This document shows positions 5,243-58,741 of a stretch of DNA of 64,000 nt, in pieces. Numbering within the stretch: position 1 is the first letter of the stretch; each line of letters begins with the position of its first letter. Source of the DNA: a virus; the IMG/VR virus record IMGVR_UViG_3300046464_000709, positions 1 to 64,000 of that record; one strand, written 5' to 3'. The notes under the pieces were generated by a model that was given only the letters and a program-made list of their open reading frames with translations, was not told the origin of the DNA and did no database searches. Position numbers and translations under genes: made by a program.

Positions 5243-5291
5243 AATATTAAGATTGTAATGTTATTATATATGCCTTATATATACACACATA

Positions 5292-6185
5292 TTAGACAGG
5301 AGAATCAGTCGGATATATATTTCCATCAGAACCCTCTTGAAAATATTGCGTAAATTCTGATTCGGATATAGCCCCTGATTCTCTTAACCTATAGCTATTC
5401 CCAGGAACCTCCTCCCATAATTCAATTGATGGATCCTTAGATTCAAAACTTGAGCTCCTTAATGATAGATTATTAGACCCATCATCCTCGAACCACTGAA
5501 CAGAAGATGACGTAGAAAGTTTATTTCCATTTATTATTAAATCCAAAAATAAATCATTCTCCTGAACCTCGGACGAAAAAGATACAGAAAACCCTGTGGT
5601 ATTTATTCCGTACGTCATAAGTGCATAGTGACCAACAGGAGGAGAATCAAGTCTTGATCCTAAAGAAATAGCTATTTTAGGTTTACTCTGAAAAACCTTA
5701 CCAACCCCTAAGCCTTCATAAGAAAACGAAAGATTATTTGTTCCAAGCGGCACATTAACAGAAGAAGAAAAAGAGCTTGAAGAAACATCTTCCAATTTAC
5801 CTGACAGTCCACTTAGTTCTTGTAATAAATTAGATACTCCTTCAGCAAGATCAGAAGAAGTTCCCGAAGAAATAATGTCTAAAGAATTTTGCAGCTCTCC
5901 AGAGAGGTTCACCAAATCTTGAGATATAGCAGAAATGCCGCTAGAGAAATCAGACGAAATATCAGAAGAGAATTCCCCAAGTGAGTCTCCTAACTTTCTA
6001 GTGAAAGCCCAATCTGTAGAATTATTTTCTCCAGTTTTTTCGTATAAAAAATTGTTTTCAAGGTCTATGTACTCAGACCCAACAATACCTGCGGCCTTAT
6101 CGCTATCAGAAGGAGGCCCAGAGTCGAGAATTAAAGGCTTCCTTATTCCTAGATTAGCGTTAACGAAAGTTTCGAAAGCGCCCAT
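5292..6185 (-). CDS. Putative structural protein
   Basis: 297 aa Ser-rich ORF directly downstream of portal in the same operon. Confidence 0.55.
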   Translation of the reverse strand: MGAFETFVNANLGIRKPLILDSGPPSDSDKAAGIVGSEYIDLENNFLYEKTGENNSTDWAFTRKLGDSLGEFSSDISSDFSSGISAISQDLVNLSGELQNSLDIISSGTSSDLAEGVSNLLQELSGLSGKLEDVSSSSFSSSVNVPLGTNNLSFSYEGLGVGKVFQSKPKIAISLGSRLDSPPVGHYALMTYGINTTGFSVSFSSEVQENDLFLDLIINGNKLSTSSSVQWFEDDGSNNLSLRSSSFESKDPSIELWEEVPGNSYRLRESGAISESEFTQYFQEGSDGNIYPTDSPV

Positions 6186-6187
6186 CT

Positions 6188-8173
6188 TTAATCCCTCCTA
6201 TCGCTGTGGTATAAAAGCGCGGCAGAATAAAGATCTAAGCCGTGACTAATAGATATAGACTGAACCTCGGACCGAGCAGATAAAGATTCAATTTTATCAG
6301 GATTAGTTAAGCATTCCTCCAGCATTGATTCCCATTTGCTGCTCGCTGATGAAACTATAACTGACTCGCAAAGATCATCAATCATTTTTTTCTCAAATGA
6401 CTTAAGACTTTTCTTCTTGAGCTTCTGCCGCATTTGCTTGTAGCCCAAATTTCGCAAAGCTTCGGTTTTGTAAACAGTTTCTTGAATCCCCTTCCTTGAA
6501 TACAAATCGCTAGAATCAGACGCTTGATCCTGCGGAATACCGGAGGTTCCAATCGGCCTACCTACTTCTTTTTTGCTTTGATCCAGCCCGGCTCCTTCTT
6601 CTGGCCCTGGACCAACCATAGGAACTCCGCCAACTATAGGGTTGTACATACCCTCCTTCCTTTGATCTATATATATTTTTTGCGCAGACTCCATACTCTC
6701 AGGCTTAGGGTAAGAGCCTTTTTCCAAAACATCCATTCCTTGCTCAGGAGTAATTATTCCCAGCTCCATTAATCTAGTAGCAACCCTTTGCAGCTGAACT
6801 TCGTCCTTTATGTCAGTTTGCTCAAATTTTACTGTAGGGTATTTCCTAAAACCTAAATTTTGACAAACCATTTTAACTTGAGGCTGAAGGAAATCATAAA
6901 TAAAAGCGTTCCTAGACTCCTCAAGCCGCTCCAGAAATATCTTTGCCTTGACCTGGGTGTTACTATATCTCTCATCACCGACTATTACATTCTGCAAGCC
7001 ATCACGAATGTCGTTATTTATTACTTCGTACTTTGCGGGGCCCACGACCTTACCTATGTCAGGTATAACGAATTGAGCCTTAGTTGTATAGTCGCTAACA
7101 AGAACCCTTCCAACGCTTTCGTTTTTAAAAAGGTTTTGCATCGCCTCCATGTTTCTAGGGTTTATACCTCCCTTATCGGGCTCGGCACCCATAGTTATAA
7201 GTAAGATTACATTTTCTATAGTTCTACATATAGCCTGATCAATTTGCTTCAGCTCTAGCTTAAAATTTATATCATCTAAAACAGGATACCCAAAAGGAAT
7301 AGCAAAAGGTTCATAATCTTGTTTCTTATAGAAGGAGTAAACCAAGTGAGAGGGATCTAACTTAACCTTAATTCCATCAGAGTTATAACCCCCTTTTAGT
7401 ATCTGCTCTTTAATATCTCCGTCGAGAGACTCAAAAACCTGTTGGTCATATTCTGTTTTAGGATTTTTAAGCCGCTCTATATCATATTGGCTTAATATTT
7501 TTTCATACAAACCGCTATCAAACGAAGATCCGTTCTTAGCGACAATATCGTACGGATTAAGCAAAATATATTTTACCGGAAGTTTCCCAGGCTTTAAAGA
7601 AAGAGAGGATCCATAGATTTTTGTTATTTTATCAAAATCGGTTTTGGAAAATTTTCCGTCAACCCTATAAAGAAATATATTCCCACTACGATAATATTCC
7701 CTAAAGTATTGATCCTTTAAGTTCCACAGATTGATTCTTTCAAACCACTTATAAACAAAGTCTCTAGAGCTCTTTGTTCCTCCTTCAAGGTATATTCCGG
7801 AGTTGGCAAATTCAGACATGACGTCGATAGCGTTCCGAAATACAGATATATTAGCGTAAGCCTTCTGACAAAGCTCTATAGAATCTCTAACATTAACTCC
7901 GTCTTGTCCGTATGAATAAGGAAGCATACCTCCAGCAATATTAGAAAACCTGTGCTTCTTATCAGATTTATGAGCTAAATTCCTTCTTGATGCAAATTCG
8001 TCTCCCGCAGATTTCGTTCTGTTATATGCGGCTTGAGACTCTATATAATAGGGCTCCCCAGAAGAAGATGGCTCCGAAGAAAAACTCTTGAGGACATCGC
8101 TTAGATCAGAATTTTCATCTTTCTTAAACTTCTCCCAGTAACTAGAGCTTTTAACATATTTCCTTTTACTCAT
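6188..8173 (-). CDS. Portal protein
   Basis: 661 aa; VFRNAIDVMSEF, FREYYRSGNIFLY and AIPFGYPVLDDI segments resemble phage portals; GTGTA motif 9 nt upstream. Confidence 0.75.
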   Translation of the reverse strand: MSKRKYVKSSSYWEKFKKDENSDLSDVLKSFSSEPSSSGEPYYIESQAAYNRTKSAGDEFASRRNLAHKSDKKHRFSNIAGGMLPYSYGQDGVNVRDSIELCQKAYANISVFRNAIDVMSEFANSGIYLEGGTKSSRDFVYKWFERINLWNLKDQYFREYYRSGNIFLYRVDGKFSKTDFDKITKIYGSSLSLKPGKLPVKYILLNPYDIVAKNGSSFDSGLYEKILSQYDIERLKNPKTEYDQQVFESLDGDIKEQILKGGYNSDGIKVKLDPSHLVYSFYKKQDYEPFAIPFGYPVLDDINFKLELKQIDQAICRTIENVILLITMGAEPDKGGINPRNMEAMQNLFKNESVGRVLVSDYTTKAQFVIPDIGKVVGPAKYEVINNDIRDGLQNVIVGDERYSNTQVKAKIFLERLEESRNAFIYDFLQPQVKMVCQNLGFRKYPTVKFEQTDIKDEVQLQRVATRLMELGIITPEQGMDVLEKGSYPKPESMESAQKIYIDQRKEGMYNPIVGGVPMVGPGPEEGAGLDQSKKEVGRPIGTSGIPQDQASDSSDLYSRKGIQETVYKTEALRNLGYKQMRQKLKKKSLKSFEKKMIDDLCESVIVSSASSKWESMLEECLTNPDKIESLSARSEVQSISISHGLDLYSAALLYHSDRRD

Positions 8174-8266
8174 TCATTATGGTACACAAAAGTTAAAGCA
8201 AAGTCTATTAAAAGTTAGAAGTTAACTTTTAACTTTTGTTTTTTGTAGCGTGTGTATACATTTATT

Positions 8267-8443
8267 ATGTCTAATAAAAAAAACAACCAATGTATAGTCA
8301 TAACTGATAGCGGAGAGATAAAAGGCTCGATTGTGAGCGAATATGAAGAAATAGGGGGCCCGGATGACGGAGCTGTCTTTGCGGTCATAGATCTTGACAA
8401 CGGACAAACCATTACTGTAAAAATGTCAGAAATATCAGAATAA
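8267..8443 (+). CDS. Small hypothetical protein
   Basis: MSNKKNNQCIVITD...; ATG 8267 lies 10 nt after GTGTA (8252-8256). Confidence 0.6.
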   Translation: MSNKKNNQCIVITDSGEIKGSIVSEYEEIGGPDDGAVFAVIDLDNGQTITVKMSEISE

Positions 8444-8464
8444 CAAAAGTGTACAATAACAACA

Positions 8465-8704: not shown

Positions 8705-10689
8705 TCTTTGCAATATCAACCTTAGTTTCAGCATTAAGCATTTCGATCATTGCTGCGTATTTCAGCATTATCGGACTCGCAACAATTTTTCCAGGATCAA
8801 TCGAGGCCGTCGTTGCCATGGGTATAGCCCTTGAAGTCGGAAAAATCATTGCGGCAATATGGCTCCACAGGAACTGGAAAAGTGCGCCAAAAACCTTAAA
8901 AGCGTATCTATTTTCAGCAATCTTAATTCTTATGGGAATAACAAGCATGGGAATATTTGGCTTTTTAAGCAAATCCCATATTGAGCATGAACAAGATGCA
9001 GAGAAAGCTGCGGCGCTAGTCACTCAAGTAGAAGCAAAAATTGAAAGAGAGAAAGAGTATATTGCCAGACAAAAAGAATTGATTGAAAAAAATGAATATA
9101 AAAATCAAAACTTTAGCGATAAAAGCTCCGAAAACATTAATCTAGAGCAAAATAAAATTAAGCAACTTACCGAACAGCTAGAGAAAGATATAGCGCTAGA
9201 CCAAAAAATGCTTGAGCCTGTAGACCAAAGAATCAAGCAAATGAATAATGAAATTGAAGAGATTAAAAACAAATCAGGAGGATTATTCTCAAGCAAAAAG
9301 AAAGACCTTGAAAGAAAAACGGCAGAACAATCAATTGAACGTCAAGAGTTAAACTCAAAAAAGAAACTGATCGAATCGAGAATATCTAAATATCGAGACG
9401 AAACATCAGCGATTATATCAGATATAAGAAAACGCATACAAGACTACCAAAATATCGGATTCGAAAAGCCAGAAGATCTAGAGAAAAAAACAGAAGAGCT
9501 TAATAAAAACATAGCGAAAGCAAGAGACACTATAGACGAACTTGAGGTAAAAAAGTTTAGCCTAAACGACGGCTCGCGCCAACTAGAGGCGGAAATAGGT
9601 CCAGTAAAATATGTAGCAGAGTTGATCGCAGACTTGACGGGAGTAGAATTTGACACAGGTAAAGCCGTAAGAATAGTTATAATAATATTAATTTTTGTGT
9701 TTGATCCCTTAGCAATATTACTTGTTCTGGCGGCACACATCAGTCTAAGTAAAAAATTTCCAAAGATTGAGCTTGATGAAGCCGCCCTTTTTCTAAAAAT
9801 TGCAGAGATTGAAGATCAGCAAAAAAAACTAGAAGATGACGAATTAAAAATAGAAGAAAGAAAAAAAGATCTTGAGCAAGAGAATAAAATGCTAGAACTT
9901 CAAGAAGGCCAAGTAAAAAAATATAAACAAGAAATATCAGAAAACAAGGAAACTTTAAGGCAATTAAAACTAGAGTCCTGTCAAGAAATATTAAAAAAAG
10001 AAAACACATCTGAAATAACAAAAGAAATCGAAGAGTTGGCTCGACAAAAGGAAAGCGCATCGAGAGAAATAAAAGAAATAAAAATAAATAAAGGCAAGCT
10101 CTTAGACAAAGCTGATCGGGTCGTCAAAAGCGCAAAAGAAATAAAAAGCGTAATAGCCGCGCACGATAAAAATAAAGAGCAAATCAAAGACCTTAAGTCA
10201 GAAGTTTGCTTAAGTTTAAATAAAATAACCGAAATAAAAGCTGAAATTAACGATTTGAAGTTAAAAAATAAAAATCTAGAAAATCAAAACAAAAAATTAT
10301 TAGCTGATTCACTAACTCCAAACAAAGAGCTTGAAAGTAAAATAGCGGACCTAATAAGTCAAAAAAATAAAATCTTAGAAGAAAATCTAAATATAAAAAA
10401 CAAAAAAAGCTTACTAATAAAAATTGAAACCTCAGAAAAAGGAATTTGCTCACTAGAGATACCATCATCTCTCGGAGGAACACATAAATACATACGGCAA
10501 AGTAAATTCGATAAGGATATAATTAACACTCTTATAGGAGTCAGTTTAGAGATCGACGGAGAAGCTGGAACAAAATCCGCTGGAGAGATAAAAGAGATCT
10601 ACGAATCCAAAAGAAAAAAAATAATCGACGCACATCTCAGCAACAGAGAATACAAAAAACAAAACGTATCTTACGAATATATATCTTGA
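8701..10689 (+). CDS. Membrane-anchored long coiled-coil protein (conserved phage family)
   Basis: N-terminal TM helices (ALSISIIAAYFSIIGL; MGIALEVGKI; GITSMGIFGFLSK), coiled coil, TM IIFVFDPLAILLVLAA, then a second coiled coil. Confidence 0.7.
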   Translation: MIFAISTLVSALSISIIAAYFSIIGLATIFPGSIEAVVAMGIALEVGKIIAAIWLHRNWKSAPKTLKAYLFSAILILMGITSMGIFGFLSKSHIEHEQDAEKAAALVTQVEAKIEREKEYIARQKELIEKNEYKNQNFSDKSSENINLEQNKIKQLTEQLEKDIALDQKMLEPVDQRIKQMNNEIEEIKNKSGGLFSSKKKDLERKTAEQSIERQELNSKKKLIESRISKYRDETSAIISDIRKRIQDYQNIGFEKPEDLEKKTEELNKNIAKARDTIDELEVKKFSLNDGSRQLEAEIGPVKYVAELIADLTGVEFDTGKAVRIVIIILIFVFDPLAILLVLAAHISLSKKFPKIELDEAALFLKIAEIEDQQKKLEDDELKIEERKKDLEQENKMLELQEGQVKKYKQEISENKETLRQLKLESCQEILKKENTSEITKEIEELARQKESASREIKEIKINKGKLLDKADRVVKSAKEIKSVIAAHDKNKEQIKDLKSEVCLSLNKITEIKAEINDLKLKNKNLENQNKKLLADSLTPNKELESKIADLISQKNKILEENLNIKNKKSLLIKIETSEKGICSLEIPSSLGGTHKYIRQSKFDKDIINTLIGVSLEIDGEAGTKSAGEIKEIYESKRKKIIDAHLSNREYKKQNVSYEYIS

Positions 10690-10714
10690 CTTTAATGATA
10701 TTATAAACTATACT
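10686..10714 (+). promoter_or_regulatory. sigma70-type promoter (leaderless start)
   Basis: TTGACT-N17-TATACT, GTG start 6 nt later. Confidence 0.7.
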
Positions 10715-10720
10715 AGTTTA

Positions 10721-12552: not shown

Positions 12553-12569
12553 TTTGTGTAATATATAAT

Positions 12570-12851
12570 ATGAGCGACGAATTTATTGACCCAGAAAACC
12601 TTTCAAGATTTAATTTGCCAGAAAGTATGATATCCCAACTATTCGAATTCACTGGATCCTCTGGAGGAGACAGCGGTTTTATTTTATCATATGTCAACCA
12701 AGAGGGATTGCCCGCAGTAATAACAAAAGCAAACTCTCCTATAGTAGAAATGGGCTTAAGAAAAGCTCTTGAGCAATACTTAGAACAGGTTTCCTCCCAG
12801 GAAATTGAATTAAATTTCCCCCCAGATTTCGGAGACGAAGAAAGCCCTTGA
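12570..12851 (+). CDS. Acidic hypothetical protein
   Basis: 93 aa; GTGTA 9 nt upstream. Confidence 0.65.
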   Translation: MSDEFIDPENLSRFNLPESMISQLFEFTGSSGGDSGFILSYVNQEGLPAVITKANSPIVEMGLRKALEQYLEQVSSQEIELNFPPDFGDEESP

Positions 12852-12876
12852 CTTTTTAAGCTAGCTGTGATACCAT
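12848..12876 (+). promoter_or_regulatory. sigma70-type promoter of dnaB (leaderless)
   Basis: TTGACT-N17-TACCAT with extended -10 TG; ATG 6 nt later. Confidence 0.65.
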
Positions 12877-16896: not shown

Positions 16897-17924
16897 AAAA
16901 AGTAATAGTAACAGGGGTAACGGGCCAAGACGGAAGTCATATGGTGGATTATTTATTAAAGAATACGGATCATGAAATATATGGTTCGGCGAGAAGGTTG
17001 AGTGTTAAAAATCACGAGAACATTTTGCATCTAGAAAATGAGCCGCGATTTCACTTGATTGACATGGATTTAAATGATGCTCACAGCATGCGCGACGTGA
17101 TACTTGATATCAAGCCCGACTACTTTATCAATTTTGCCGCGCAATCATTTGTTGCTGGCAGTTGGAATTACCCAATTCAAACATGGGACACTGACGCAGA
17201 TGCAGTGCTACATATTCTTGAATCAATTCGTAGATTTGTTCCTGATTGTAAATTTTATAATGCTGGATCAAGCGAAGAGTTTGGCGACGTCGTAACAAAC
17301 CCTCAAAACGAAGATCACCCCCTGCGACCACAAAGCCCTTATGGCGCAGCAAAATGCGCAGCTAGGCACCTTGTGCGCGTCTACAGAGAGTCTTACAACC
17401 TCTACGCTGTCCAAGGTTGGCTGTTTAATCATGAAGGAAGTCGTCGCGGCCTTGATTTTGTGACTCGTAAAATTTCTCACACAGTAGCAAGAATAAAAAT
17501 TGCTCTAGAATCAAACAAAACAATCCCTATTTTAAAACTTGGAAACATTGAAGCTCAACGCGACTGGAGTGACGCAGAAGACTTTATGGAAGGTGTTTGG
17601 TTAATGCTCAATCAAAAGGCTCCAAAAAATTATGTATTGGGTAGTGGCGAGATGCACACAGTACGCGAATTTCTTGAAGAAGCTCTAAAATGCGCAAACA
17701 TCGAATTTGAATCGCGAGGCACAGAAGCTGATGAAAAATATTACACTAAAGATGGTATATTAATTTTTGAAGTTGATCCTAAGTTTTATCGACCCGCAGA
17801 AGTGTACGAATTGTGCGGTGATTCAACGCTCGCAGAAAACGAAATGGGTTGGGTGCGCAAAACAGATTTTACCGGACTTGTTAGAAAAATGTATCAAAGT
17901 GATTATATGCTCCTAACAAGGTAA
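16893..17924 (+). CDS. gmd: GDP-mannose 4,6-dehydratase
   Basis: TGVTGQDGS, AAQSFV, SSEEFG, SPYGAAK, FNHE..RRG..FVTRK, RDW, YRPAEV. Confidence 0.92.
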   Translation: MKKVIVTGVTGQDGSHMVDYLLKNTDHEIYGSARRLSVKNHENILHLENEPRFHLIDMDLNDAHSMRDVILDIKPDYFINFAAQSFVAGSWNYPIQTWDTDADAVLHILESIRRFVPDCKFYNAGSSEEFGDVVTNPQNEDHPLRPQSPYGAAKCAARHLVRVYRESYNLYAVQGWLFNHEGSRRGLDFVTRKISHTVARIKIALESNKTIPILKLGNIEAQRDWSDAEDFMEGVWLMLNQKAPKNYVLGSGEMHTVREFLEEALKCANIEFESRGTEADEKYYTKDGILIFEVDPKFYRPAEVYELCGDSTLAENEMGWVRKTDFTGLVRKMYQSDYMLLTR

Positions 17925-17953
17925 AAATAAAAAAAATCGTGTAAATAATATTT

Positions 17954-20526: not shown

Positions 20527-20552
20527 AAAAGCCGCCTTCGGGCGGCTTTTTT
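20527..20552. terminator. Intrinsic terminator
   Basis: AAAA-GCCGCC-TTCG-GGCGGC-T6 (UUCG tetraloop). Confidence 0.9.
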
Positions 20553-20586
20553 GTGTAAATACTTGTCCTTACAATTAATATCTAAT

Positions 20587-24859: not shown

Positions 24860-24888
24860 TTGACTTCGATATATTACTATGATATACT
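24860..24888 (+). promoter_or_regulatory. sigma70-type promoter of nrdB (leaderless)
   Basis: TTGACT-N17-TATACT with extended -10 TG; ATG 6 nt later. Confidence 0.7.
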
Positions 24889-25908: not shown

Positions 25909-25957
25909 ACCGCCAGAAAAACATACAATAAATATAAATATAGTGTAATATATACAT

Positions 25958-29825: not shown

Positions 29826-29891
29826 AAATAAGAAGCCCCCCCGCAAGCTAACTAGCTGCACGTTAAAGCTTGCGCCTCAAGCAATTTGTGC

Positions 29892-29920
29892 TTGACATAT
29901 TGGAATTATTTTGCTAAAAT
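29892..29920 (+). promoter_or_regulatory. sigma70-type promoter of the polymerase operon (leaderless)
   Basis: TTGACA-N17-TAAAAT with extended -10 TG; ATG 7 nt later. Confidence 0.7.
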
Positions 29921-29927
29921 AATAAGC

Positions 29928-33885: not shown

Positions 33886-33907
33886 TTTAGAGTGTAAATC
33901 AATGAAG

Positions 33908-36863: not shown

Positions 36864-36880
36864 AATTACATTTACACCTA

Positions 36881-37399: not shown

Positions 37400-37400
37400 T

Positions 37401-37820: not shown

Positions 37821-37877
37821 AATTTATACCTTTTTCCTTATAGGGTTATACACTAATATATAGTAAATTGATAAAAT

Positions 37878-37907
37878 AAAAAATCCACCCCAGTTTCCTG
37901 AGGTGGA
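37878..37907 (-). terminator. Intrinsic terminator after capsid gene
   Basis: Minus strand TCCACCTCAG-GAAA-CTGGGGTGGA followed by T run. Confidence 0.85.
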
Positions 37908-37935
37908 CATTTTATAAAACGTTAATTTGTTTAAA

Positions 37936-39084: not shown

Positions 39085-39102
39085 TTTTTTAAATTTCCTT
39101 TC

Positions 39103-39732
39103 TTAGAAGCTGACTTTGCAGAGATATTTCTTAGTTGTATTATCATCGCTTTCTTCTCCGATTGCGATAACAGTTCCAACTGCTGCACCAGAACTCTTCA
39201 CAGTAAGCTTTCCTCCGGTTGCGACTTCAAGTTCATCTCCAAGTGCGACAGTGCCACTTATAGCTCCTGCAGCGAGAAGAACGAGACCCTTTGTCAAAAC
39301 AGGAACTGTTTGACCAGGAAGAACTCCTTGAGCTTCATCAAGTTTTTGTTTGTAATAGAGCATTTTCTCTCCATTCTCGTCGAAAGCCAAGGTTTCACGT
39401 AATGTGATTCCAAGTCCACGACTGCCAGCAGCAGCAGGAGCAACGGTCATACCTGTGTTAGCGGGGTATCCGTTGAATCCAATATGCGCTCCGCTAAAAC
39501 TAGCGCCTAGATAGCCTCGGAGGGCATCGCTAGATTCAGCACGCAATTCGGAAACCTCACCAGGTAGAGCTCCCGCACTTACAGAAACGACAACGCCTGC
39601 ATCGAAATCTCCTGATCCATTAGAAACCATTCCAGCCAACGTTGTAGCTGTTGCGGATGATAAATCAAGAGAAAACAAATTAACAACATCGTGTTCACTG
39701 TAGTCTCGGTATGGTAGTATTCTTTTTGCCAT
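39103..39732 (-). CDS. Head decoration/cement protein
   Basis: 209 aa, G/A/V-rich (GQTVPVLTKG, AVGTVIA), between protease and capsid. Confidence 0.65.
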   Translation of the reverse strand: MAKRILPYRDYSEHDVVNLFSLDLSSATATTLAGMVSNGSGDFDAGVVVSVSAGALPGEVSELRAESSDALRGYLGASFSGAHIGFNGYPANTGMTVAPAAAGSRGLGITLRETLAFDENGEKMLYYKQKLDEAQGVLPGQTVPVLTKGLVLLAAGAISGTVALGDELEVATGGKLTVKSSGAAVGTVIAIGEESDDNTTKKYLCKVSF

Positions 39733-39751
39733 AATTTTTTTCTTCTATTTT

Positions 39752-41350: not shown

Positions 41351-41367
41351 ATACAAAAATCTTACAC

Positions 41368-43239
41368 TTAGTTTATAAACATGGGAGTAAAAGTATAATT
41401 CACGTTATTAACTTTAGAGTTCATTATATCATAGTAAAGTTTAATCATCCAATTGCCAAGTATTAATGCAGAATAACTATCTTTTCTCGCTTTTTCTGGG
41501 CCGGTTTGACGCTTTAAACTAGGAGGAAGATCAAATGTTTGAGTTCCTCCTGCAGAAGTAGATATCTGAATTAAAGAACATTGAGTTTTAATAAGATTCA
41601 TCATATCAAATTGATGCTCAACAAAGTCAATCATTTTCGCTGCATTTGTTTGGCGCTCTAAACTTTGAGATGTTCTTAAAAATTTTAAATCCTGAATTGG
41701 TATTTTTTTATTTCTTTGTTCGTTATAAGCATCATCAATTGCTCTTGCCCCAAAGAATATCCGATGATGATCAAAGTTGGCCTGAAGCAACTCGTTCGCC
41801 AACCTAATCCACTGACTAGTAGGTTTGCGCAAATAACAAATCGTTTTATCTTCTAAATTATATTCTTTTTTCCCTTCTATTATTTTTTCTTGATAATGTT
41901 CTAAGTCATCAAAGTTAGTATTTAAACATTTTATATTCATTTTATTTTTCTTGAACAAACTACTTTCATTACAAGCATTAATAAACTGCACTCCTCCATT
42001 ATAATCTCCAACAATAGATACAATATTAAAATGAGTAAGTAAATAATAAAAATAAAAAATATGTTGTTTTAAATTTGTGCCGCTTAAAGCGTAGCTATGC
42101 ACGACAGTCCCAATCTTCTTGTCGTCGTTAAGCTTGAGCACCATCATAGCAAAGTCATCACTACTTTCACTTTCTGCCCAACTCGGATCAAATGCCAAAA
42201 TATATTTTTGCCCAACCTCCCCGCGCACTTCAATAGTTGGAGTCTCTCCATCTTTCAAAGTGCACGAAGCCATCTTGGAGGTCTTAAAATATCCGCTGCT
42301 ATCGTCAGTAAAAATTGAACCAAACTCTCTGTCGAACTGGCTCTGACTCATTGTAGACTTCGCCTGATCCAAAAGATTTTGGTCGTACAACTGCTTTGGG
42401 GCGCAGTCATAACTAAACTGCATGATAACCCTGTGCGCATCACTTTGTTTTGAGCTGCCTTGGCGAATCAAATCTTCAAATTGCTCGTAAGCTTTGTACA
42501 TGTACTCAAACTTATAACTTGCTGAAGAAAGAGCTATTAGCTTATTGTTGCGCCAAACGTGCCGCTCGTCTTCGTTCATCTTTCCTTGCTCAATTAAATT
42601 CGTCTCAAGGTTAAATAAAGCCTCCCTTTGAGTCGGGTTTTCGACCACACTCAAGAACGGTATTATAACCTCATTATAAATACGCTCGGGCATAAGGGCA
42701 AACTCGTCTATAATAATTCTATGAAAACGAAATCCTCGAAGCTTCTCTCCATCTCCAAGAGGTAGAGCTCGGATCCTACTGCTACCGATCTCAAGTAGCC
42801 ATTCATCGTTGCTTTTTGATTTATGCGTTATGCATTGAGCTAGATATGTTGCCCCAGGCTTCGAGGCAATATCTTCAATTTTTTTGAATATCATCTTGGC
42901 TTGCCGGAAGGATTTTGAGAGTATCCCTATCTCGACTCCTTGATTCATTATAGCGTCTAAATATGCATATATGGCAGTAGTGAATGACTTACTCATTCCT
43001 CGAGACCATACCCCCATGAAATAATCTGTTTCAAACATAGCCTTTATCGCCATATGCTGAAAAGGAAAAAGCTGAACTCCGCTAACTAAATCTGCAGTAA
43101 ATGTGATATTCTCCCTCAAGAACTTGTATAGTAAAATCTTAGCTTCTTTTTCTTCTATAAACCCTTTCATTTCTTCAAGTTGTTCATTGAAGTTTTTTTC
43201 TTCAGCCCTAGATAATTGATTTCCTGTTTCCCAAGTCAT
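41368..43239 (-). CDS. terL: Terminase large subunit
   Basis: LFPFQ, SRGMSKS (Walker A-like), LRGFR..IIIDE, LSSA, nuclease LAFDP..SDD..KDSYSA. Confidence 0.88.
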   Translation of the reverse strand: MTWETGNQLSRAEEKNFNEQLEEMKGFIEEKEAKILLYKFLRENITFTADLVSGVQLFPFQHMAIKAMFETDYFMGVWSRGMSKSFTTAIYAYLDAIMNQGVEIGILSKSFRQAKMIFKKIEDIASKPGATYLAQCITHKSKSNDEWLLEIGSSRIRALPLGDGEKLRGFRFHRIIIDEFALMPERIYNEVIIPFLSVVENPTQREALFNLETNLIEQGKMNEDERHVWRNNKLIALSSASYKFEYMYKAYEQFEDLIRQGSSKQSDAHRVIMQFSYDCAPKQLYDQNLLDQAKSTMSQSQFDREFGSIFTDDSSGYFKTSKMASCTLKDGETPTIEVRGEVGQKYILAFDPSWAESESSDDFAMMVLKLNDDKKIGTVVHSYALSGTNLKQHIFYFYYLLTHFNIVSIVGDYNGGVQFINACNESSLFKKNKMNIKCLNTNFDDLEHYQEKIIEGKKEYNLEDKTICYLRKPTSQWIRLANELLQANFDHHRIFFGARAIDDAYNEQRNKKIPIQDLKFLRTSQSLERQTNAAKMIDFVEHQFDMMNLIKTQCSLIQISTSAGGTQTFDLPPSLKRQTGPEKARKDSYSALILGNWMIKLYYDIMNSKVNNVNYTFTPMFIN

Positions 43240-44162
43240 TATATTAGTTTTCGATCAAGATAGTACTGAAGGTCTACGTCCCAAAGCTGTTTTCCTAAAG
43301 TCAATATTTTTGGAATTAAATGTTCAGACTCCTCCCTGCTTCCCGTAAAAATGAACTGGCAGCTACCTTTGAATTTATGCGCTAGAGTACGCATGTTATG
43401 ATAAATATACTTCATGTTTGACATGTGTGGGGCCCATCGATTATTTTTTTCTATGCTGTTTATGCTTCCTTCAGTTACCACGAACAAATAACTATCAAAG
43501 TCTTTCGTTCGTTGAAGTTCGTACTCGAATCTATTTAAATTATTTTTGCTCAATGTGGATTTAAAATCTTGCTCGCTTTTTCTATCCGCGTAAGTATAAT
43601 CATAATGTTCTTTGCCTACAGCATAATCTCCAAAATCTAGCTTAAGAAACTCTGAATTAGGAAACTCTAAAGGCTGCTGCTCTCTTGTGTCTATAAAAAT
43701 TTTAACCGAATCATCAACCTTTCTTCCCCATTCTTTTGGCAATCGAGACCCAAACATTGGAAGAACCCCTGCGGCCTTACAAGCTTCGGTATAAGAGCCG
43801 AAATGTTTTTGATATAGTTCTATGGTAGGCATTTCATTTACCTCTAGCTCTATATGGGAAGGTCCGAACTTTAAGTTTTTATCTTCAACCCTATGCTTGA
43901 GCATTTTTAATATATATTCCCTAACAGTTTCATCTGATTGCGCGTTGCACCATTTTAATAACTGATCCCTGTTTGAAAAATCTCGCCCGAAGTATTGTTC
44001 TTTATTTTTAAATGGCAATAAATCTCCTGTATATAGATTATGACGCGGATAGTATTTTATGTAATATTCTGCGAGAGTAACCTTGTGAGACCTCAAGTGC
44101 ATATGAAGTTTTTTTTCGCTTTCAAATTCCAGCGAACATATCTTACAAACATTAAATGACAT
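43239..44162 (-). CDS. ERCC4-type nuclease with N-terminal C2H2 zinc finger
   Basis: CKIC..HLRSH; IDTREQQP, GDY, DRKS..DF, VVTEG. Confidence 0.75.
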   Translation of the reverse strand: MSFNVCKICSLEFESEKKLHMHLRSHKVTLAEYYIKYYPRHNLYTGDLLPFKNKEQYFGRDFSNRDQLLKWCNAQSDETVREYILKMLKHRVEDKNLKFGPSHIELEVNEMPTIELYQKHFGSYTEACKAAGVLPMFGSRLPKEWGRKVDDSVKIFIDTREQQPLEFPNSEFLKLDFGDYAVGKEHYDYTYADRKSEQDFKSTLSKNNLNRFEYELQRTKDFDSYLFVVTEGSINSIEKNNRWAPHMSNMKYIYHNMRTLAHKFKGSCQFIFTGSREESEHLIPKILTLGKQLWDVDLQYYLDRKLI

Positions 44163-45204
44163 CTTCTTTAGAAATGCCCAAAACCCTAGCTTTCCAGTCA
44201 GGCATCGATTCGAGTCTTCCAGCTTCTTCTTTTGCCGCCTCTCTTTGCAATCTCGCGATTTTTATCATAACCTCTCGCTCTTCCTCTTCCTGAAATAGTT
44301 GGACAAGCGACAACAAACTTGCATTTTGCTGGTGCTTGCTGGATATTCTTTTTGATCGGTCTCCCTGAAGTTTTTGAATCAATGACTCCATTCTTTTTTC
44401 GCACTGATTGTATTCTTCGCTTTTAGTTTTAAGCAATTCTGCTAATCTTACAGTTAAATCCTGTTGGTCTTCCGCTTCATCGAACATTCTATTTAACTTA
44501 TTAATTGCGCTTTGAATGTTTTTCAAATGAATGTAATCCATACACACGTTGATGTATAAATTAATCTCGTCACTTGTTAAGTCAGGCTTATCCCAGGTAG
44601 CCCTAACAAACTCTGCCTCAAATAAGTCTCTATCCGCCTGACTATCGTAAGTGTTGATTACCTGAATAAATCTAGGTGACGCTAAAAAGCCTCCCAAGGA
44701 TTCGATGCCCTTTCTCTCGGACATGGTGAGCTTTTCTTCGTTTATACTTGTTTGGGCATAGTCATTTATCTTTTTTATTATTTTACTAGAAGCCTTTGGA
44801 GGGGAGTATCTTTTATTTATTGCATCCTCAGATGCGGGAGTCTTTATTTCATCATTTTTATCAACGTATTCAAATACAGCTTGATATTCTTTTGAAGTAT
44901 GCGTTACTCGGATTTCCGGGAAAAGCACTGCTGCTGCTTGAGCGCAGGTCATACCATCTGAGACAGATTGGTCTACAAAGTCTTTTTGCTCCTGGGTTAA
45001 TATAATATCATCCTTCGGGTAGATGTGTTTTGTTTCATACTCTATCTCGTTATTCAATAAAAATTTCCTAACGGCCCTACCCTGTTTACTTCTTCCGTCA
45101 ACTTTATCAGAGTCGGGAAAAGCTAACTTGGTTAATTCGGTTAAATCAGAGACTTCATTTGCGTTAGACCTGATAACGTTTTTCTGTTCGTCGTTTAGCT
45201 CCAT
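44152..45204 (-). CDS. Hypothetical coiled-coil protein (possible terminase small subunit)
   Basis: 350 aa, upstream of terL; function by position only. Confidence 0.5.
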   Translation of the reverse strand: MELNDEQKNVIRSNANEVSDLTELTKLAFPDSDKVDGRSKQGRAVRKFLLNNEIEYETKHIYPKDDIILTQEQKDFVDQSVSDGMTCAQAAAVLFPEIRVTHTSKEYQAVFEYVDKNDEIKTPASEDAINKRYSPPKASSKIIKKINDYAQTSINEEKLTMSERKGIESLGGFLASPRFIQVINTYDSQADRDLFEAEFVRATWDKPDLTSDEINLYINVCMDYIHLKNIQSAINKLNRMFDEAEDQQDLTVRLAELLKTKSEEYNQCEKRMESLIQKLQGDRSKRISSKHQQNASLLSLVQLFQEEEEREVMIKIARLQREAAKEEAGRLESMPDWKARVLGISKEDVI

Positions 45205-45938
45205 GGAGGTACAGCCCTAACGGCGATAATGTCTTCTCTTTTCAAAATGTCTTGAGCTTTTTCTTTAAAAATTTTCTTTAAATTTTTTATCTGCTTATAT
45301 CCAGCTTTTCTTCCTTTTTCACTAGTTTTATACCCCATTTGTTCGGCAACCTCTTCTTCGTCAATATTATCAATAAAAAGCAACTTGTAAACTTGATACT
45401 GCTTGCTAGAAAGCTCTTTTTTCATATGCTTGTTTAATTTCTGCTGAGACTCGATTATATTGAAATTATGATCCTGCATAGCTCCGACCTCGTAAGAATG
45501 ATTCTCAAGAGCGAGCGCCATTTTTATTCCGTAAGCAGGCTTTTTTGTTCTTTCCCATTTTGCATAAAGAGGGCAAGAGGAGTCCTGTAATCCGCTTTTT
45601 GTAAAACCACATAAAGAAGCTTCTCCTCCGTCCTTTGTGGCGCATGATTGATTAAAAGGGCAGTTTAAACATGGTCTGACAAAGTTGCTGTAATTATTTC
45701 GCAATATATTTTTCATTTGATTGGTAATAATCTTATTGATCCAAGGCTTCAATGATCTAGATTGGTCCCATTGATGCCATTTTTTGTGAATGTGAGCCTT
45801 TATAATTTGCTCAACATCTTCAAAGTCAAACCAAGCGAGAGAATCAAGGAACCATTTACCCTTTCTTTTTCTTACTTCTAAGTCGATTTCGTCCGACTTG
45901 TCCTCGTATTTAAATTCAGGCTTTTTTTGGTCGTCCAC
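45195..45938 (-). CDS. ECF-like RNA polymerase sigma factor with Cys-rich insert
   Basis: Region 2 DFEDVEQ..WDQSRSLKPWINKIITNQMKNILR; region 4 LSSKQYQVYKLLFIDNIDEEEVAEQMG; probable GTG start 45938. Confidence 0.75.
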   Translation of the reverse strand: MDDQKKPEFKYEDKSDEIDLEVRKRKGKWFLDSLAWFDFEDVEQIIKAHIHKKWHQWDQSRSLKPWINKIITNQMKNILRNNYSNFVRPCLNCPFNQSCATKDGGEASLCGFTKSGLQDSSCPLYAKWERTKKPAYGIKMALALENHSYEVGAMQDHNFNIIESQQKLNKHMKKELSSKQYQVYKLLFIDNIDEEEVAEQMGYKTSEKGRKAGYKQIKNLKKIFKEKAQDILKREDIIAVRAVPPWS

Positions 45939-46287
45939 GTTTTTTTGGTTTTTTTGGAGCAACTTTTTCTGGGTCTAGATCTTCAAGTGGAATTAGATCT
46001 TTTAGGTTAAATTTATTTTTATCCTGTTCTACGCTGTACGATAGTTTAGATATTGACGGAACCTCATATACATCGCTTCCATCTGGGTCATAAGACTCGT
46101 CAAGCAACTCAGGAGATCTTCTAACCCTACGAGCGGGATTGGGCGTGAGAGTTTTTTTTGAAACGCTTGAGGTTGTTTTTGCTGCAGATAATATACTCAA
46201 ACCCTGCCCACAGCCACCACAAAATTTTGGAGCCTGGATAGAGTACATGTTCTTGAAGCCACAGTGAGGACAGTAAGAAAAAGCCAT
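45916..46287 (-). CDS. Zinc-ribbon protein
   Basis: YCPHCG..KFCGGCG; TTGATA-N16-TATAAT upstream. Confidence 0.75.
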   Translation of the reverse strand: MAFSYCPHCGFKNMYSIQAPKFCGGCGQGLSILSAAKTTSSVSKKTLTPNPARRVRRSPELLDESYDPDGSDVYEVPSISKLSYSVEQDKNKFNLKDLIPLEDLDPEKVAPKKPKKRGRPKKA

Positions 46288-46314
46288 AATAATATATTAT
46301 AGCTTAAAAAAAAA

Positions 46315-46905
46315 TTATATCAAATAACCGCTTATTATTCTACTTTGCTTTCTCGAGAACTCTTCTGCTTCCTCGCTCCACTTTCTGTTTTCTTTTACAT
46401 ACTCAAAGCAAAGAACTCCCAAGATTTTTCCGTTTAAAGTTTTTACTGGCCGCGCAAAAAAACTTTTCACGCCTTTTTGCTCCAGAAAAGACTTGAATCC
46501 GATATCATCATTGTACTCTTCTAGATTAGGACACTTGAATGTTTTTTCCTGAGATACTGAATGCGTAAGTCCGTGAAAATTAGAAGTTCTTATATTTTGA
46601 AGGGTCTGACATTCGGAACTTATTCCTTCGCTAACGACCTCATAAGTGCAACTTAATTTTTGCTGACTTCTTCCGGAAAAATAATGCTCTCCATTATGAA
46701 ACTCTAAAATATATACTCTATCTGCATCAGCTTCATCGAGAACATAATTTAAGGCAGAAATTACATTGCTATGGCAATTAGGGTCGTAAACAAATTGTTT
46801 ACTTTTCTTTTCATCATATTTTATTTTCAACCACATACCGATAACCGCAGTTGCGGCAGAAACTACACCAGTAAGCACGCTTAATATATCTAGACCATTA
46901 TTCAT
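46315..46905 (-). CDS. Single-TM protein with GAF-like domain (T4 T-holin-like architecture)
   Basis: N-terminal TM; ADRVYILEFHNG..CTYE..FLEQKGVKSFFARPV..ILGVLCFEY. Confidence 0.6.
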   Translation of the reverse strand: MNNGLDILSVLTGVVSAATAVIGMWLKIKYDEKKSKQFVYDPNCHSNVISALNYVLDEADADRVYILEFHNGEHYFSGRSQQKLSCTYEVVSEGISSECQTLQNIRTSNFHGLTHSVSQEKTFKCPNLEEYNDDIGFKSFLEQKGVKSFFARPVKTLNGKILGVLCFEYVKENRKWSEEAEEFSRKQSRIISGYLI

Positions 46906-47129
46906 TTTTTAAAAATTAAAGAAAAGAGCGAAATAAAAAAAACTAAACCTATTACCATTCCAAACCATATCCACGGCCCAGTATGATCATAATTCTGAGG
47001 ATCGCTCACTATAGATAGTACATTCGATTCGTCGCCAGGAGAATCTAATTTAGCAATTTCTTTTGGTTTCTGTATGATTTTTCTCGAACAAGAGAAGAAA
47101 AATAAAATTATCAGCCAGCAACCCCTCAT
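46902..47129 (-). CDS. Lipoprotein with C-terminal TM (candidate unimolecular spanin)
   Basis: MRGCWLIILFFFSC lipobox-like; C-terminal WIWFGMVIGLVFFISLFSLIFKK. Confidence 0.5.
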   Translation of the reverse strand: MRGCWLIILFFFSCSRKIIQKPKEIAKLDSPGDESNVLSIVSDPQNYDHTGPWIWFGMVIGLVFFISLFSLIFKK

Positions 47130-47560
47130 CGACGCTTACTGGGAATCGCATAAAATCCAACAACCATGAAACACAAATCCATAAACGATGCAAGCATCAA
47201 GCCTCCTGTCATTTGAACTACTTCCCAGTCTTTTGCTCCGAATATCCAACTAAAAAACCCCCACTTTGTGCCTTCCCCTTTAGGGACAATTAAATTGTAT
47301 GTAATATGAGGATTCATTGCATAATAAATCATCAAGAAACACATGGTAAACGTGATACTCATAAAAAGTATTCTTCGGCTAACCTTCACAAAAGGATCTT
47401 TAGCATTTTCCGACTGACTAGAAATTAAAGCTTCTAGCATTTTTTCGTCTCGCGCGGCTAAAGCTAGCTGATCTTGCCTCTTTTGCTCTAGCCATGCGTT
47501 TATTAGATTGCAGGCCAATTTTATTCCCGCTCCTATAATAGTATTCAATATTGGGCCCAT
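47126..47560 (-). CDS. Membrane protein (holin-like)
   Basis: N-terminal amphipathic helix and two TM segments ending VVGFY..KRR; GTGTA 9 nt upstream. Confidence 0.55.
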   Translation of the reverse strand: MGPILNTIIGAGIKLACNLINAWLEQKRQDQLALAARDEKMLEALISSQSENAKDPFVKVSRRILFMSITFTMCFLMIYYAMNPHITYNLIVPKGEGTKWGFFSWIFGAKDWEVVQMTGGLMLASFMDLCFMVVGFYAIPSKRR

Positions 47561-47618
47561 ATAAATATATACACAAAAATAATTTTACAAAAAAATAAAT
47601 ATGTGTAATATATAGTAT

Positions 47619-47816
47619 ATGTCACAAAAATCTATCCTGGAAATGCTTAGTAAAAATTTAAACTCATACCAGTCTACATGTTGGTTAAAAACTGAAAATG
47701 CAAAATTAAATGGATCCACTCCTGCAGAATTGATGATGGAAAATCAAACAGACAAAGTATCAAGAATATTGCCAGAAGAAATAAAAAGAATAAAAAGTAA
47801 AAAAAATACTAATTAG
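47619..47816 (+). CDS. Orphan Xre/MbcA/ParS (DUF2384) antitoxin C-terminal domain
   Basis: WLKTENAKLNGSTPAELM..DKVSRIL matches WL..pn..L.G.tP.dll..V..L; GTGTA 11 nt upstream. Confidence 0.7.
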   Translation: MSQKSILEMLSKNLNSYQSTCWLKTENAKLNGSTPAELMMENQTDKVSRILPEEIKRIKSKKNTN

Positions 47817-50054: not shown

Positions 50055-50242
50055 TTATTCTATATACACTATTTTATACTTAAAAGATGCTTGCAGATAT
50101 CTTCTGCACATTATTATAATATTTTATTTTATATTTTATACTCAAACTATATTTAAACTATATTCAAATCATAAATTAATTGTTTTTATTTTTAGCTGTA
50201 TTTATTGAAAAACAAAAAAACAAAAGCTAGTATATAACATAC

Positions 50243-50440: not shown

Positions 50441-50503
50441 TTGCCGCGAAAACTAATCAATATTTTAGTTTAATTTTTTATATACTTTTATATAATAGTA
50501 CAT

Positions 50504-50824
50504 ATGACAGACGCAACACTAGAAAATCCAGAAGAAACTGAAAAGAAAAACGCCGAATCAACAGAAAACAAAGAGTTGACTGATGAGCAAAAACTAGATT
50601 ACGATATGGCTATTGCTGCTATAGCGAATCAATTTCTTGATAAAACTAATTTGGCAGAAGCTTTCAGCACTGTACCATTAAGTACGTTAATTCAATCGGT
50701 TCAAAGCCAGGCAGTCACACAAGCTAAAGAAACAATCAAGCAAATGCCCGCCGAAGACTATAACGGACTTGTTAATGACCTCAAAAATCAGTCAGAGAAC
50801 CAAGAAAGCGAAAAAACAGAATAA
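50504..50824 (+). CDS. Acidic hypothetical protein
   Basis: 106 aa, followed by terminator. Confidence 0.65.
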   Translation: MTDATLENPEETEKKNAESTENKELTDEQKLDYDMAIAAIANQFLDKTNLAEAFSTVPLSTLIQSVQSQAVTQAKETIKQMPAEDYNGLVNDLKNQSENQESEKTE

Positions 50825-50851
50825 ACTTTTAAAAATCTATATTCCATGAAG

Positions 50852-50882
50852 ACCAACGGTGATCATTTGCCGTTGGTTTTTT
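50852..50882 (+). terminator. Intrinsic terminator between convergent genes
   Basis: ACCAACGGT-gatcattt-GCCGTTGGT followed by T run. Confidence 0.75.
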
Positions 50883-51413: not shown

Positions 51414-51497
51414 ATACATAAATACACGCAAGACGGGGGAACCCTTAATACGAATTTTCTATAAATTAGTTTATGTAATTATTCTTAACAAAAAGAA

Positions 51498-53651: not shown

Positions 53652-53663
53652 GATATTTTAAAA

Positions 53664-55139: not shown

Positions 55140-55142
55140 GAT

Positions 55143-56208: not shown

Positions 56209-56217
56209 GATTAAAAA

Positions 56218-57822: not shown

Positions 57823-57843
57823 TCTATTTGATTACACTATAGT

Positions 57844-58575
57844 CTATTTTTTGCTTTGAATTTTTGTTATTACAAATTTTAGTATTTCACTTCGCATGAT
57901 ATCTTCTGCGCCAAAGTGAAAAGTATGAACTCCTTGAGCTTTACTTTCTTCGTCATTAAATAATCGATACATATCTGCAAATCCACTTTTGCCATTAATG
58001 TCGCTCTGCATAGGATCACCGCAAATGATCAATTTGCTGCCCTCGCCAAGTCGAGTCATTAATGTTGTCAATTCTTTGAATGTGAAATTTTGAGATTCAT
58101 CCGCGATTACTATCTCATCACGCCAACTAGCTCCGCGCAAATAATTGACAGGCATACCTTTAACAATGTCTTTCTCTTTGACAATACTTGCTTGCCCAGG
58201 AATCAATAACTCGTCGAGCTTTTCATTCATTGGCATCATATATGGATTGATTTTCTCGGCCATTTCTCCGGGTAATGCGCCAAGACTTTTTTCGCCACTT
58301 TCAGCAATCGTGCGAACATATGTAATGCCGCGCTCATTTTTCATATTGTATAATTGTAATGCGCCGTAAATCGCGACATACGTTTTACTCGTTCCGGCGG
58401 GCCCACTTATAAATATTATCTTTGATTCACTGTCAAATATTATTTTTAATAATTGGTTTTGTTTTTCAGTTAAATTTATTTTCTTTAACTTGATGTTTAT
58501 TTTTGTTAATGATTTACGAATTTTTTCGATTTCGTCTTCATTCACGATTTCTGGTTTTTTCTTGCGTCGAGGCAT
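57844..58575 (-). CDS. phoH: PhoH family ATPase
   Basis: GPAGTSKT, LGALPG..EK..PY, YLRG, ADESQN, LMTRLG, GDPMQSD. Confidence 0.92.
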   Translation of the reverse strand: MPRRKKKPEIVNEDEIEKIRKSLTKINIKLKKINLTEKQNQLLKIIFDSESKIIFISGPAGTSKTYVAIYGALQLYNMKNERGITYVRTIAESGEKSLGALPGEMAEKINPYMMPMNEKLDELLIPGQASIVKEKDIVKGMPVNYLRGASWRDEIVIADESQNFTFKELTTLMTRLGEGSKLIICGDPMQSDINGKSGFADMYRLFNDEESKAQGVHTFHFGAEDIMRSEILKFVITKIQSKK

Positions 58576-58741
58576 GATATATATTATTGTATAATAAAGT
58601 ACACCTTTTTTAAGTTTTTTTAAAAGGCGGGCCGGATGTTTAATAATTATAAATAGGTTATTTTATAAAGGGCCGCCGATTTTTTTCGAATCGAACATAT
58701 ATATTGTAATTTATAATATGAAATTCATATTGAAAAAAGGC

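Follow-up and report, generated by a model that had tools for sequence, protein, structure and literature searches.

The late promoters of bacteriophage T4 (TATAAATA) are read by gp55 together with gp33 and the sliding clamp, and the late mRNAs carry Shine-Dalgarno leaders. Promoters of extracytoplasmic function (ECF) sigma factors are bipartite, with a strong -35 box, and short GT-containing -10 elements are typical of this group. Here we deal with a five-base word, GTGTA, that stands just upstream of start codons in the DNA of an uncultured marine phage (positions 1 to 64,000 of the IMG/VR record IMGVR_UViG_3300046464_000709); this whole 64-kb stretch is called the window throughout.

Three further systems bear on it. 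In phage phiEco32 the middle and late promoters carry AATGTA at -14 to -9 (tAATGTAtA), are read by the phage sigma gp36 with gp79, and start transcription 6-8 bp downstream (PMC12276001, PMC8948821). Thermus phage P23-45's middle and late promoters are of the extended -10 type without a -35 box and use host sigma A; the phage proteins involved are gp39, which displaces sigma4, and gp76 (PMC7403470). Leaderless expression via a -10 element that adjoins the open reading frame (ORF) is treated for Deinococcus-Thermus (PMC12340547) and in a genome-wide inference in bacteria (PMC3160421).

A full-text literature search, with most subscription journals and supplementary promoter tables outside its reach, found no paper on a GTGTA phage promoter. 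We propose that GTGTA is probably a single-element, -10-like promoter of the non-early genes of this phage, read by a phage-made sigma factor (likeliest the product of 45195-45938) and giving leaderless or near-leaderless mRNA.

GTGTA upstream of genes in the window

An earlier note on this DNA, made from the sequence alone, had listed GTGTA 9-12 nt ahead of 14 genes and 24-39 nt ahead of four more. All 18 coordinates carry the word on the strand given. We measured the spacer from the A of GTGTA to the first ATG opening an ORF of at least 40 aa. So measured, 12 of the 14 close sites have the spacing as written, while 33892 and 51423 fit it only through a second ATG (33908 and 51413); the four distant sites have the spacers that had been claimed. 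The sites are as follows, with a score for the flanks of some of the boxes.

Close sites
8252-8256, plus strand: GTGTA, 10 nt to ATG 8267 (58-aa ORF 8267-8443); head of a divergent pair
8183-8187, minus strand: GTGTA, 9 nt to ATG 8173 (661-aa gene 6188-8173); head of a divergent pair; flank score 5.8
8449-8453, plus strand: GTGTA, 11 nt to ATG 8465 (79 aa)
12556-12560, plus strand: GTGTA, 9 nt to ATG 12570 (93 aa); 4 nt past the stop of the preceding gene
17939-17943, plus strand: GTGTA, 10 nt to ATG 17954 (346 aa, DUF5824 match)
25943-25947, plus strand: GTGTA, 10 nt to ATG 25958; heads a lectin-like / DUF1549-DUF1553 / DUF1501 run; best flank score, 6.5
33892-33896, plus strand: GTGTA ahead of the ClpC-like gene, 5 nt to ATG 33902 and 11 nt to ATG 33908 (the ATG conserved in relatives)
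36873-36877, minus strand: GTGTA, 9 nt to ATG 36863 (164 aa)
41363-41367, minus strand: GTGTA, 12 nt to ATG 41350; adjoins the terminase stop codon 41368-41370; heads an apparently highly expressed run from 41350 to 37936 (depth of assembled RNA contigs)
47570-47574, minus strand: GTGTA, 9 nt to ATG 47560 (144 aa)
47603-47607, plus strand: GTGTA, 11 nt to ATG 47619 (65 aa, weak Xre/MbcA/ParS_C match); divergent partner of 47570
50065-50069, minus strand: GTGTA, 10 nt to ATG 50054 (258 aa); head of a divergent junction
51423-51427, minus strand: GTGTA, 3 nt to ATG 51419, or 9 nt to ATG 51413
57833-57837, minus strand: GTGTA, 10 nt to ATG 57822 (534 aa, tail-fibre-like PHROG matches)

Distant sites
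5282-5286, minus strand: GTGTA, 39 nt to ATG 5242 (524 aa, tail-fibre-like)
20553-20557, plus strand: GTGTA, 29 nt to ATG 20587; a strong hairpin (about 20527-20552, -26 kcal/mol) adjoins it with its T-run
37849-37853, minus strand: GTGTA, 28 nt to ATG 37820; the leader is purine-rich and Shine-Dalgarno-like, and the terminator 37908-37883 lies about 30 nt upstream of the box
58600-58604, minus strand: GTGTA, 24 nt to ATG 58575 (PhoH-like gene)

Across the window as a whole GTGTA is not enriched (49 copies against 59.3 +/- 8.5 in shuffles). Its placement relative to starts is another matter. ORFs were called by a simple greedy longest-ORF rule, under which some starts are wrong and some small ORFs spurious; within -30 to -1 of the 79 starts so obtained, the word occurs at 13, whereas 2000 dinucleotide shuffles of the same stretches average 2.16 and never exceed 9. 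Positional enrichment over a shuffled background, the check that the earlier note had named, is thus present. No other upstream 5-mer that is not pure A/T is as strong (13 copies against 0.79 expected from the whole-window frequency), the 5' G lies at -16 to -14 in 10 of the 13 start-associated copies, and the reverse-complement word has 0 copies within -30 to -1 of the same 79 starts.

Some gene labels given earlier are not confirmed. The products of 6188-8173 and 39752-41350, called 'portal' and 'protease', match nothing in Pfam or PHROG, and the 'antitoxin' at 47619-47816 has a Pfam match below threshold only (21.6 bits, cut-off 24.5).

A GTGTA copy inside a gene may be mentioned here for its flanks: at 17742-17746 (minus strand), antisense within the GDP-mannose 4,6-dehydratase gene, the word has promoter-like A/T flanks with a flank score of 5.3, third of 49. 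It could be an antisense start or chance.

Conservation in related phages

IMG/VR holds hundreds of relatives of the window, on contigs of up to about 184 kb. Among 155 related loci with 1570 distinct upstream regions, GTGTA lies at -17 to -14 in 211 and its antisense form at those positions in 2. The core is strict: in the 1214 distinct upstream regions of ATG starts, GTGTA occurs 206 times at -17 to -14, each one-mismatch word 0-21 times, and ATGTA 3 times. Where orthologous upstream regions are compared (loci at 70-99% protein identity), the five letters and the length of the spacer are kept and the letters of the spacer drift, in sets of 12 to 58 distinct sequences per gene; for the gene starting at 41350, the box directly follows the terminase stop codon in every listed relative.

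A complete relative genome, here G001 (184,324 bp, CheckV 100%), was analysed whole. The G of GTGTA lies at -17 to -14 in 21 of its 236 ORF starts and at -35 to -19 in 11 more. The word also recurs in more distant relatives: in 63 loci picked via a homologue 43% identical to the window sigma, the top positional 5-mer is again GTGTA, with 39 copies at -18 to -13 against 22 over 36 control offsets, and at least one such site in 26 of the 63 loci. A still more remote sigma homologue, P0202 (30% identical), recovered just 2 weak loci.

These data bear on whether the pattern is an artefact of chance or composition, produced by A/T-rich intergenic DNA and by the way start codons were chosen. In favour of an artefact, the word has only five letters and shows no overall enrichment, and at two of the 14 close sites the spacing depends on a second ATG; on the other side, shuffles yield 2.16 copies where 13 are observed, the word is strand-specific and invariant across orthologues at 70-99% identity, and it recurs in distant relatives. 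Chance is refuted by the shuffles, by the -17 to -14 peak in relatives, by the drift of spacers around a kept box and by the strict core, and we give this explanation practically no credence.

Architecture of the GTGTA sites

Nothing resembling a second promoter box accompanies GTGTA. At 227 sites the information content upstream of the word stays below 0.8 bit, and in the -35 zone of the 21 G001 promoters no k-mer passes multiple-test correction (best P = 4e-3 over 1024 5-mers). The positions after GTGTA are merely A/T-rich, and the equivalent of T-7 reads A at 0.44 and T at 0.47.

The position in the -10 zone, with TG followed by TA, leads to the idea that the box is read by the host sigma factor remodelled by phage proteins (sigma appropriation, as in P23-45), whose middle and late promoters likewise have no -35 box (PMC7403470); moreover, the sigma70-like promoters of the phage, described next, show host-type recognition in use. 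However, TG abuts TA without a spacer base, the T-7 equivalent is split between A and T, the first G is invariant, and the phage has two sigma-like genes of its own. We consider sigma appropriation very unlikely.

The following are examples of sigma70-like promoters in the window.

10686-10714: sigma70-like promoter
12848-12876: sigma70-like promoter
24860-24888: sigma70-like promoter
62130-62170: sigma70-like promoter

General scans for sigma70 promoters and terminators gave no excess over shuffles in two of three segments and a modest one in the third (81 against 61 +/- 8), and we therefore used only individual strong sites of either kind. In 5 of 11 cases in the window and 15 of 30 in G001, the sigma70-like -10 hexamer has its end exactly 6 nt ahead of the start codon. 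Given the established distance from a -10 element to the transcription start, +1 would then coincide with the A of the ATG; promoters of this phage thus normally keep a fixed distance to the ATG, and its early mRNAs look leaderless too. GTGTA occupies the same zone as these hexamers, about -14 to -10, and the two kinds of element keep apart: none of the 11 sigma70-like genes in the window and one of the 30 in G001 also carries a GTGTA box, which bears out the claim that the word does not precede sigma70-driven early genes. No third promoter class is visible among the 48 G001 genes that have neither box and a gap of 20 nt or more; CTTGAC...CATAMT promoters, missed by the pattern, are present at many of these genes.

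Shine-Dalgarno-like words are likewise rare behind a close box, as the earlier note had said: they occur in 0 of 10 close-box genes in the window and in 11 of 219 (5%) in relatives. The corresponding figures in relatives are 212 of 1271 (17%) for genes without a box and 34 of 80 (42%) for genes with a distant one. Orthologues of gene 47560 that have no box and lie inside an operon show a purine-rich stretch in its place.

A similar feature was seen at the operon-internal genes 39084-37936 and 39732-39103 (both minus strand) and their orthologues, which have purine-rich words of the AAGGA type at about -14 to -8. Host ribosomes therefore seem to use weak Shine-Dalgarno sequences at such genes, the genes at unit heads having none.

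The boxes mark the heads of transcription units. Because greedy ORF calls are noisy among the small genes of the early region, divergent junctions were counted by hand and only outside that region, where there are four (8173/8267, 47560/47619, 50054/50243 and 58575/58914). A box is present at 6 of their 8 heads; the remaining two, 50243 and 58914, face sigma70-like matches. The small-gene early region itself (58.9-64 kb) contains a single GTGTA, which is not ahead of any called start. Terminator-like hairpins lie just upstream of two boxes: the T-run of one adjoins 20553, and an 11-pair hairpin precedes 37849 by about 30 nt.

37883-37908, minus strand: intrinsic-terminator-like hairpin, 11 pairs and a T-run, after gene 37936-39084 and before the box at 37849

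Another, very strong terminator-like hairpin (15 pairs and a T-run) was noticed at 50848-50881 on the plus strand, after gene 50504-50824.

RNA contigs

The RNA data comprise 23 metatranscriptome runs, all in the form of assembled contigs, so that transcription starts, strand and level are not readable from them. In two runs from two studies (X5 and X6), contigs identical to the window cover 36643-41333 at depths of 12-121 and end at 41333 and 41332 without an unaligned tail. These ends fall 17-18 nt inside the ORF starting at 41350 and leave out the box at 41363; on the far side of the box (41363-41367), the terminase gene has an RNA depth of 0-2. This boundary is compatible with a promoter at the box and is a weak hint of one. 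Runs X1 and X3, both from one study, hold a 98% relative at flat depth over 36000-47257, bridging the box at 41363, and are uninformative on transcription; uncovered parts elsewhere in 47-56 kb were not counted as evidence.

The layout of boxes, starts and contigs also bears on a different kind of explanation, in which GTGTA acts in the RNA, as a translation enhancer or operator or as a processing site, with a phage translational regulator, an endonuclease or rRNA as its partner. The fixed distance to the AUG is what such a signal would show, many boxes, like Shine-Dalgarno sequences, occupy very short gaps between genes of one strand, and UACAC, the complement of GTGTA, occurs in the universally conserved region of 16S rRNA around position 1390. 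However, the box is found at only about 1 in 6 genes, where it marks unit heads; the four distant boxes are separated from their start codons by 24-39 nt with Shine-Dalgarno-like words in between; terminators stand directly ahead of two boxes; the X5 and X6 contigs end downstream of the box at 41363 and exclude it; and the canonical -10 hexamers of the phage show the same fixed distance. On balance a role in the RNA seems to us quite improbable.

Candidate sigma factors

Four features are relevant to the question of which protein would read a GTGTA promoter.

45195-45938, minus strand: ECF-like sigma gene, with four invariant cysteines separating its sigma2-like and sigma4-like parts; its product may read the box
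45916-46287, minus strand: ORF for a protein with a Zn-ribbon and an AT-hook; first gene of the sigma operon, overlapping the sigma start codon
46296-46323, minus strand: sigma70-like promoter TTGATA-16-TATAAT of the sigma operon, with its end 8 nt from ATG 46287; conserved in relatives
L156:3746-4339 of G001, minus strand: second sigma-like gene, 197 aa, Sigma70_r2 at 21.6-23.6 bits; no copy in the window

The product of 45195-45938 matches Pfam Sigma70_r2 at 23.6 bits, just under the cut-off of 24, and its G001 orthologue does so at 27.4 bits, above it. Its homologues number 1149 at 90% clustering and form 493 clusters at 50% identity; one source labels them 'sigma24 family', and PF04542 is precomputed for many. 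The AlphaFold model has a mean predicted local distance difference test score (pLDDT) of 74 and two confident helical domains, the C-terminal one (residues 171-240) at pLDDT 81-96. Its best Foldseek matches are ECF sigmas (SigH, SigL, SigE, SigW), the top one being 6jcx_F at E = 8.9e-3 and a probability of 0.99, with no E below 1e-3; the alignments span 214-226 columns of two-domain ECF sigmas at E 9e-3 or worse, and region 4 has no Pfam match. A phmmer search against PDB chains with E up to 10 returned 4 matches, namely region 2 of SigR and three ribosomal proteins.

In an alignment of 30 homologues, C98, C101, C118 and C130 (CxxC...C...C) are invariant; they lie in the linker between the domains, where the confidence of the AlphaFold model is low. 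A zinc site in a sigma linker would be unusual. The first protein of the operon (45916-46287) has an N-terminal Zn-ribbon, CPHC..CGGC, and a C-terminal AT-hook, KKRGRPKK; of 55 distinct relatives, 46 retain the R-G-R codons. As an idea only, it could be a partner of the sigma factor on the A/T-rich flanks.

A profile search of the complete relative G001 found no family of RNA polymerase beta or beta' subunits. It is this genome that encodes the second, small sigma, whose best PDB sequence matches are WhiG, SigA, FliA and RpoS. The small sigma belongs to an early-type operon with a deoxynucleoside monophosphate (dNMP) kinase and a single-stranded DNA-binding protein (SSB), with TTGACA-17-TATACT 6 nt before the first ATG. 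Relatives of it are present in 31 IMG/VR loci, and in two cases the contig encodes the four-cysteine sigma as well.

The promoter could be as we propose and yet be read by this other phage sigma, which is group 1-3-like and encoded outside the window, with the four-cysteine sigma doing something else. Such an assignment draws on the second Sigma70_r2 match in G001, its TTGACA-17-TATACT promoter and the 31 loci with relatives, and on the finding of a single non-sigma70 promoter class for two phage sigmas. Yet the ECF-like look, which would go with a GT-containing -10 element, belongs to the four-cysteine sigma (a weak argument); the small sigma resembles readers of TATAAT-like or FliA-type boxes; and GTGTA persists in the loci reached through remote homologues of the four-cysteine sigma, which again counts weakly. 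We regard the small sigma as an unlikely reader. The ECF-like sigma is favoured because short GT-containing -10 elements are typical of its group. The earlier note had already named the product of 45195-45938 as the probable reader: the ORF proves sigma-like and stays a candidate reader, a second sigma-like gene being present in G001 outside the region that the window covers.

Gene content and host of the phage

Scans of the window proteins with Pfam and PHROG identify a T4-type terminase large subunit, RecA-like and DnaB-like proteins, a primase and a class I ribonucleotide reductase. Further genes encode a split PolIII alpha, a ClpC-like ATPase, PhoH, tail-fibre-like proteins and the DUF1549/DUF1553 and DUF1501 pair. 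The phage is remote from those described: megablast of 22.7 kb of the window against 50,697 phage records gave no match, and the terminase protein has only about 24% identity to its best phage matches, from Clostridium and Bacillus phages.

The replicative polymerase is apparently split over three adjoining plus-strand ORFs (29886-33885), with a PHP domain at 29886-30686, an RNase T-like exonuclease at 30656-31327 and the PolIII alpha core at 31309-33885.

The nearest cellular homologues of the DUF1501 protein (28554-29825, plus strand) come from metagenome-assembled genomes (MAGs) of Verrucomicrobiota (Opitutia at 56%, others at 44-49%), with Planctomycetes at 31-37%; this homology is a hint that may point toward Verrucomicrobiota as the host lineage. 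Three Verrucomicrobial MAGs, picked via the DUF1501 homologue and not known hosts, show the GTGTA pattern at 35-40 per Mb against 15-24 per Mb in a reversed control, a ratio of 1.5-2.3. In a relative of the phage, the same pattern occurs at 157 per Mb against 49 per Mb in the reversed control.

A GTGTA promoter class

From the above we infer a promoter role for GTGTA, its start site, the sigma that reads it and the timing of the units that it heads. GTGTA within its A/T-rich flanks would be the core of a single-element, -10-like promoter, and the class would cover structural genes, the ClpC-like gene, the DUF1549/1553/1501 run, PhoH and a number of small ORFs. Such a promoter would be read by the RNA polymerase core of the host with a phage-made sigma, most likely the ECF-like four-cysteine protein of 45195-45938, itself expressed from a sigma70-type promoter. 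With the box at about -14 to -10 relative to the A of the start codon, transcripts would start at the AUG itself or no more than about 3 nt from it, and the leading gene of every unit would be translated without a Shine-Dalgarno sequence; boxes 24-39 nt upstream would give short leaders, often with a Shine-Dalgarno-like word.

A single-box promoter giving leaderless mRNA had been suggested before. It agrees with the position, strand and conservation of the word, with the absence of a -35 box and of Shine-Dalgarno sequences, with the exclusion of sigma70-like promoters, with the layout of terminators and with the RNA boundary at 41363; the start itself is placed by inference. ClpC, the DUF1549/1553/1501 operon and the small Xre-like gene are putative members of the class, by box position only. 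The earlier note called these late genes; the class may equally comprise middle and late genes.

Several observations weigh against this reading. In the window, 31 further GTGTA copies lie away from starts, and with a core of 5 bp the flanks or a cofactor must therefore add specificity; the flank score does separate start-associated from off-start copies (P = 2e-6), yet it mostly reflects A/T richness. The relatives are not independent samples, many of them being orthologous copies, and this affects the Shine-Dalgarno counts as well. The sigma4-like helix of the candidate sigma is very conserved, an unexpected feature if the promoter has no -35 box, and as the two sigmas co-occur, co-occurrence cannot tell which of them reads the box. 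Among the RNA contigs, one from X6 (50460-50826, depth 14.7) begins 44 nt upstream of a start codon and ends just before the hairpin at 50848-50881; contig ends are therefore unreliable as start sites. Finally, the host may itself make use of GTGTA, the MAGs counted not being known hosts.

A broader scenario is conceivable, although we think it unlikely. A very large clade of uncultured marine phages, probably of Verrucomicrobiota, would be wholly leaderless: its early promoters would have the -10 element 6 nt before the AUG, and its later ones would use GTGTA through a new branch of ECF-like sigmas with four cysteines; the AT-hook protein, by holding the A/T flanks, would replace the need for a -35 box, and the small sigma would take the TATAAT-type promoters.

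If the proposed promoter is real, one five-base word marks the non-early transcription units in a very large group of uncultured marine phages. It would make the assignment of start codons and operon heads in these genomes more reliable and give an expression class to ClpC, the DUF1549/1553/1501 run, PhoH and other auxiliary genes. It would also represent a compact, orthogonal sigma/promoter pair, and a clear case of a phage with leaderless mRNA as the default, from host-type and phage-type promoters alike.

Comparison with known systems

Among described systems, the gp36 promoter of phiEco32 comes closest; it is a better analogue than the T4 late promoter. The two share a TGTA core in the -10 zone, a single element without a conserved -35 box, a sigma gene in an earlier expression class, and a phage sigma that redirects the host core enzyme, as it would in our case. 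They differ in the first base, which is G here and not A (GTGTA 206 against ATGTA 3), so that the gp36 consensus is not matched. The proteins differ as well: the model of the window sigma matches ECF sigmas, and the protein bears four invariant cysteines. No sequence match to gp36 was obtained with phmmer in PDB (E up to 10), the gp36 chain being assumed to be in the set searched, and no phiEco32 entry is among the 45 Foldseek matches listed down to rank 50, which are bacterial sigmas. Furthermore, the boxes here abut start codons, which would imply leaderless mRNAs, whereas no mention of such mRNAs was met for phiEco32, the word 'leaderless' being absent from PMC8948821.

The T4 late promoter, with which GTGTA had been compared in the earlier note, serves as an analogy only. 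Both have a single box in the -10 zone without a -35 element, which here too would serve late genes through a sigma-like protein made by the phage. The box, however, is GTGTA and not TATAAATA, the positions after it being only A/T-rich, and a gp55-like protein was not identified: general Pfam and PHROG scans of the window proteins, none of them aimed at those families, named no gp55-like or gp33-like protein.

ECF sigmas provide the best structural matches to the window sigma, and its region-2 sequence resembles SigR. Unlike ECF promoters, GTGTA sites show no -35 box, which is relevant if the window sigma is the reader; a further difference is the segment with four cysteines inserted between the domains.

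With P23-45, the phage shares non-early promoters that have no -35 box. The motif there resembles TG-n-TATAAT, whereas in our box TG and TA adjoin and conservation is lacking at the T-7 equivalent, so that GTGTA is not an extended -10 element.

Finally, as in the leaderless genes of Deinococcus-Thermus, an element of the -10 type stands at a fixed short distance before the start codon without a Shine-Dalgarno sequence. There it is a host box of the TATAAT type, whereas here a second, phage-specific box, GTGTA, has the same geometry.

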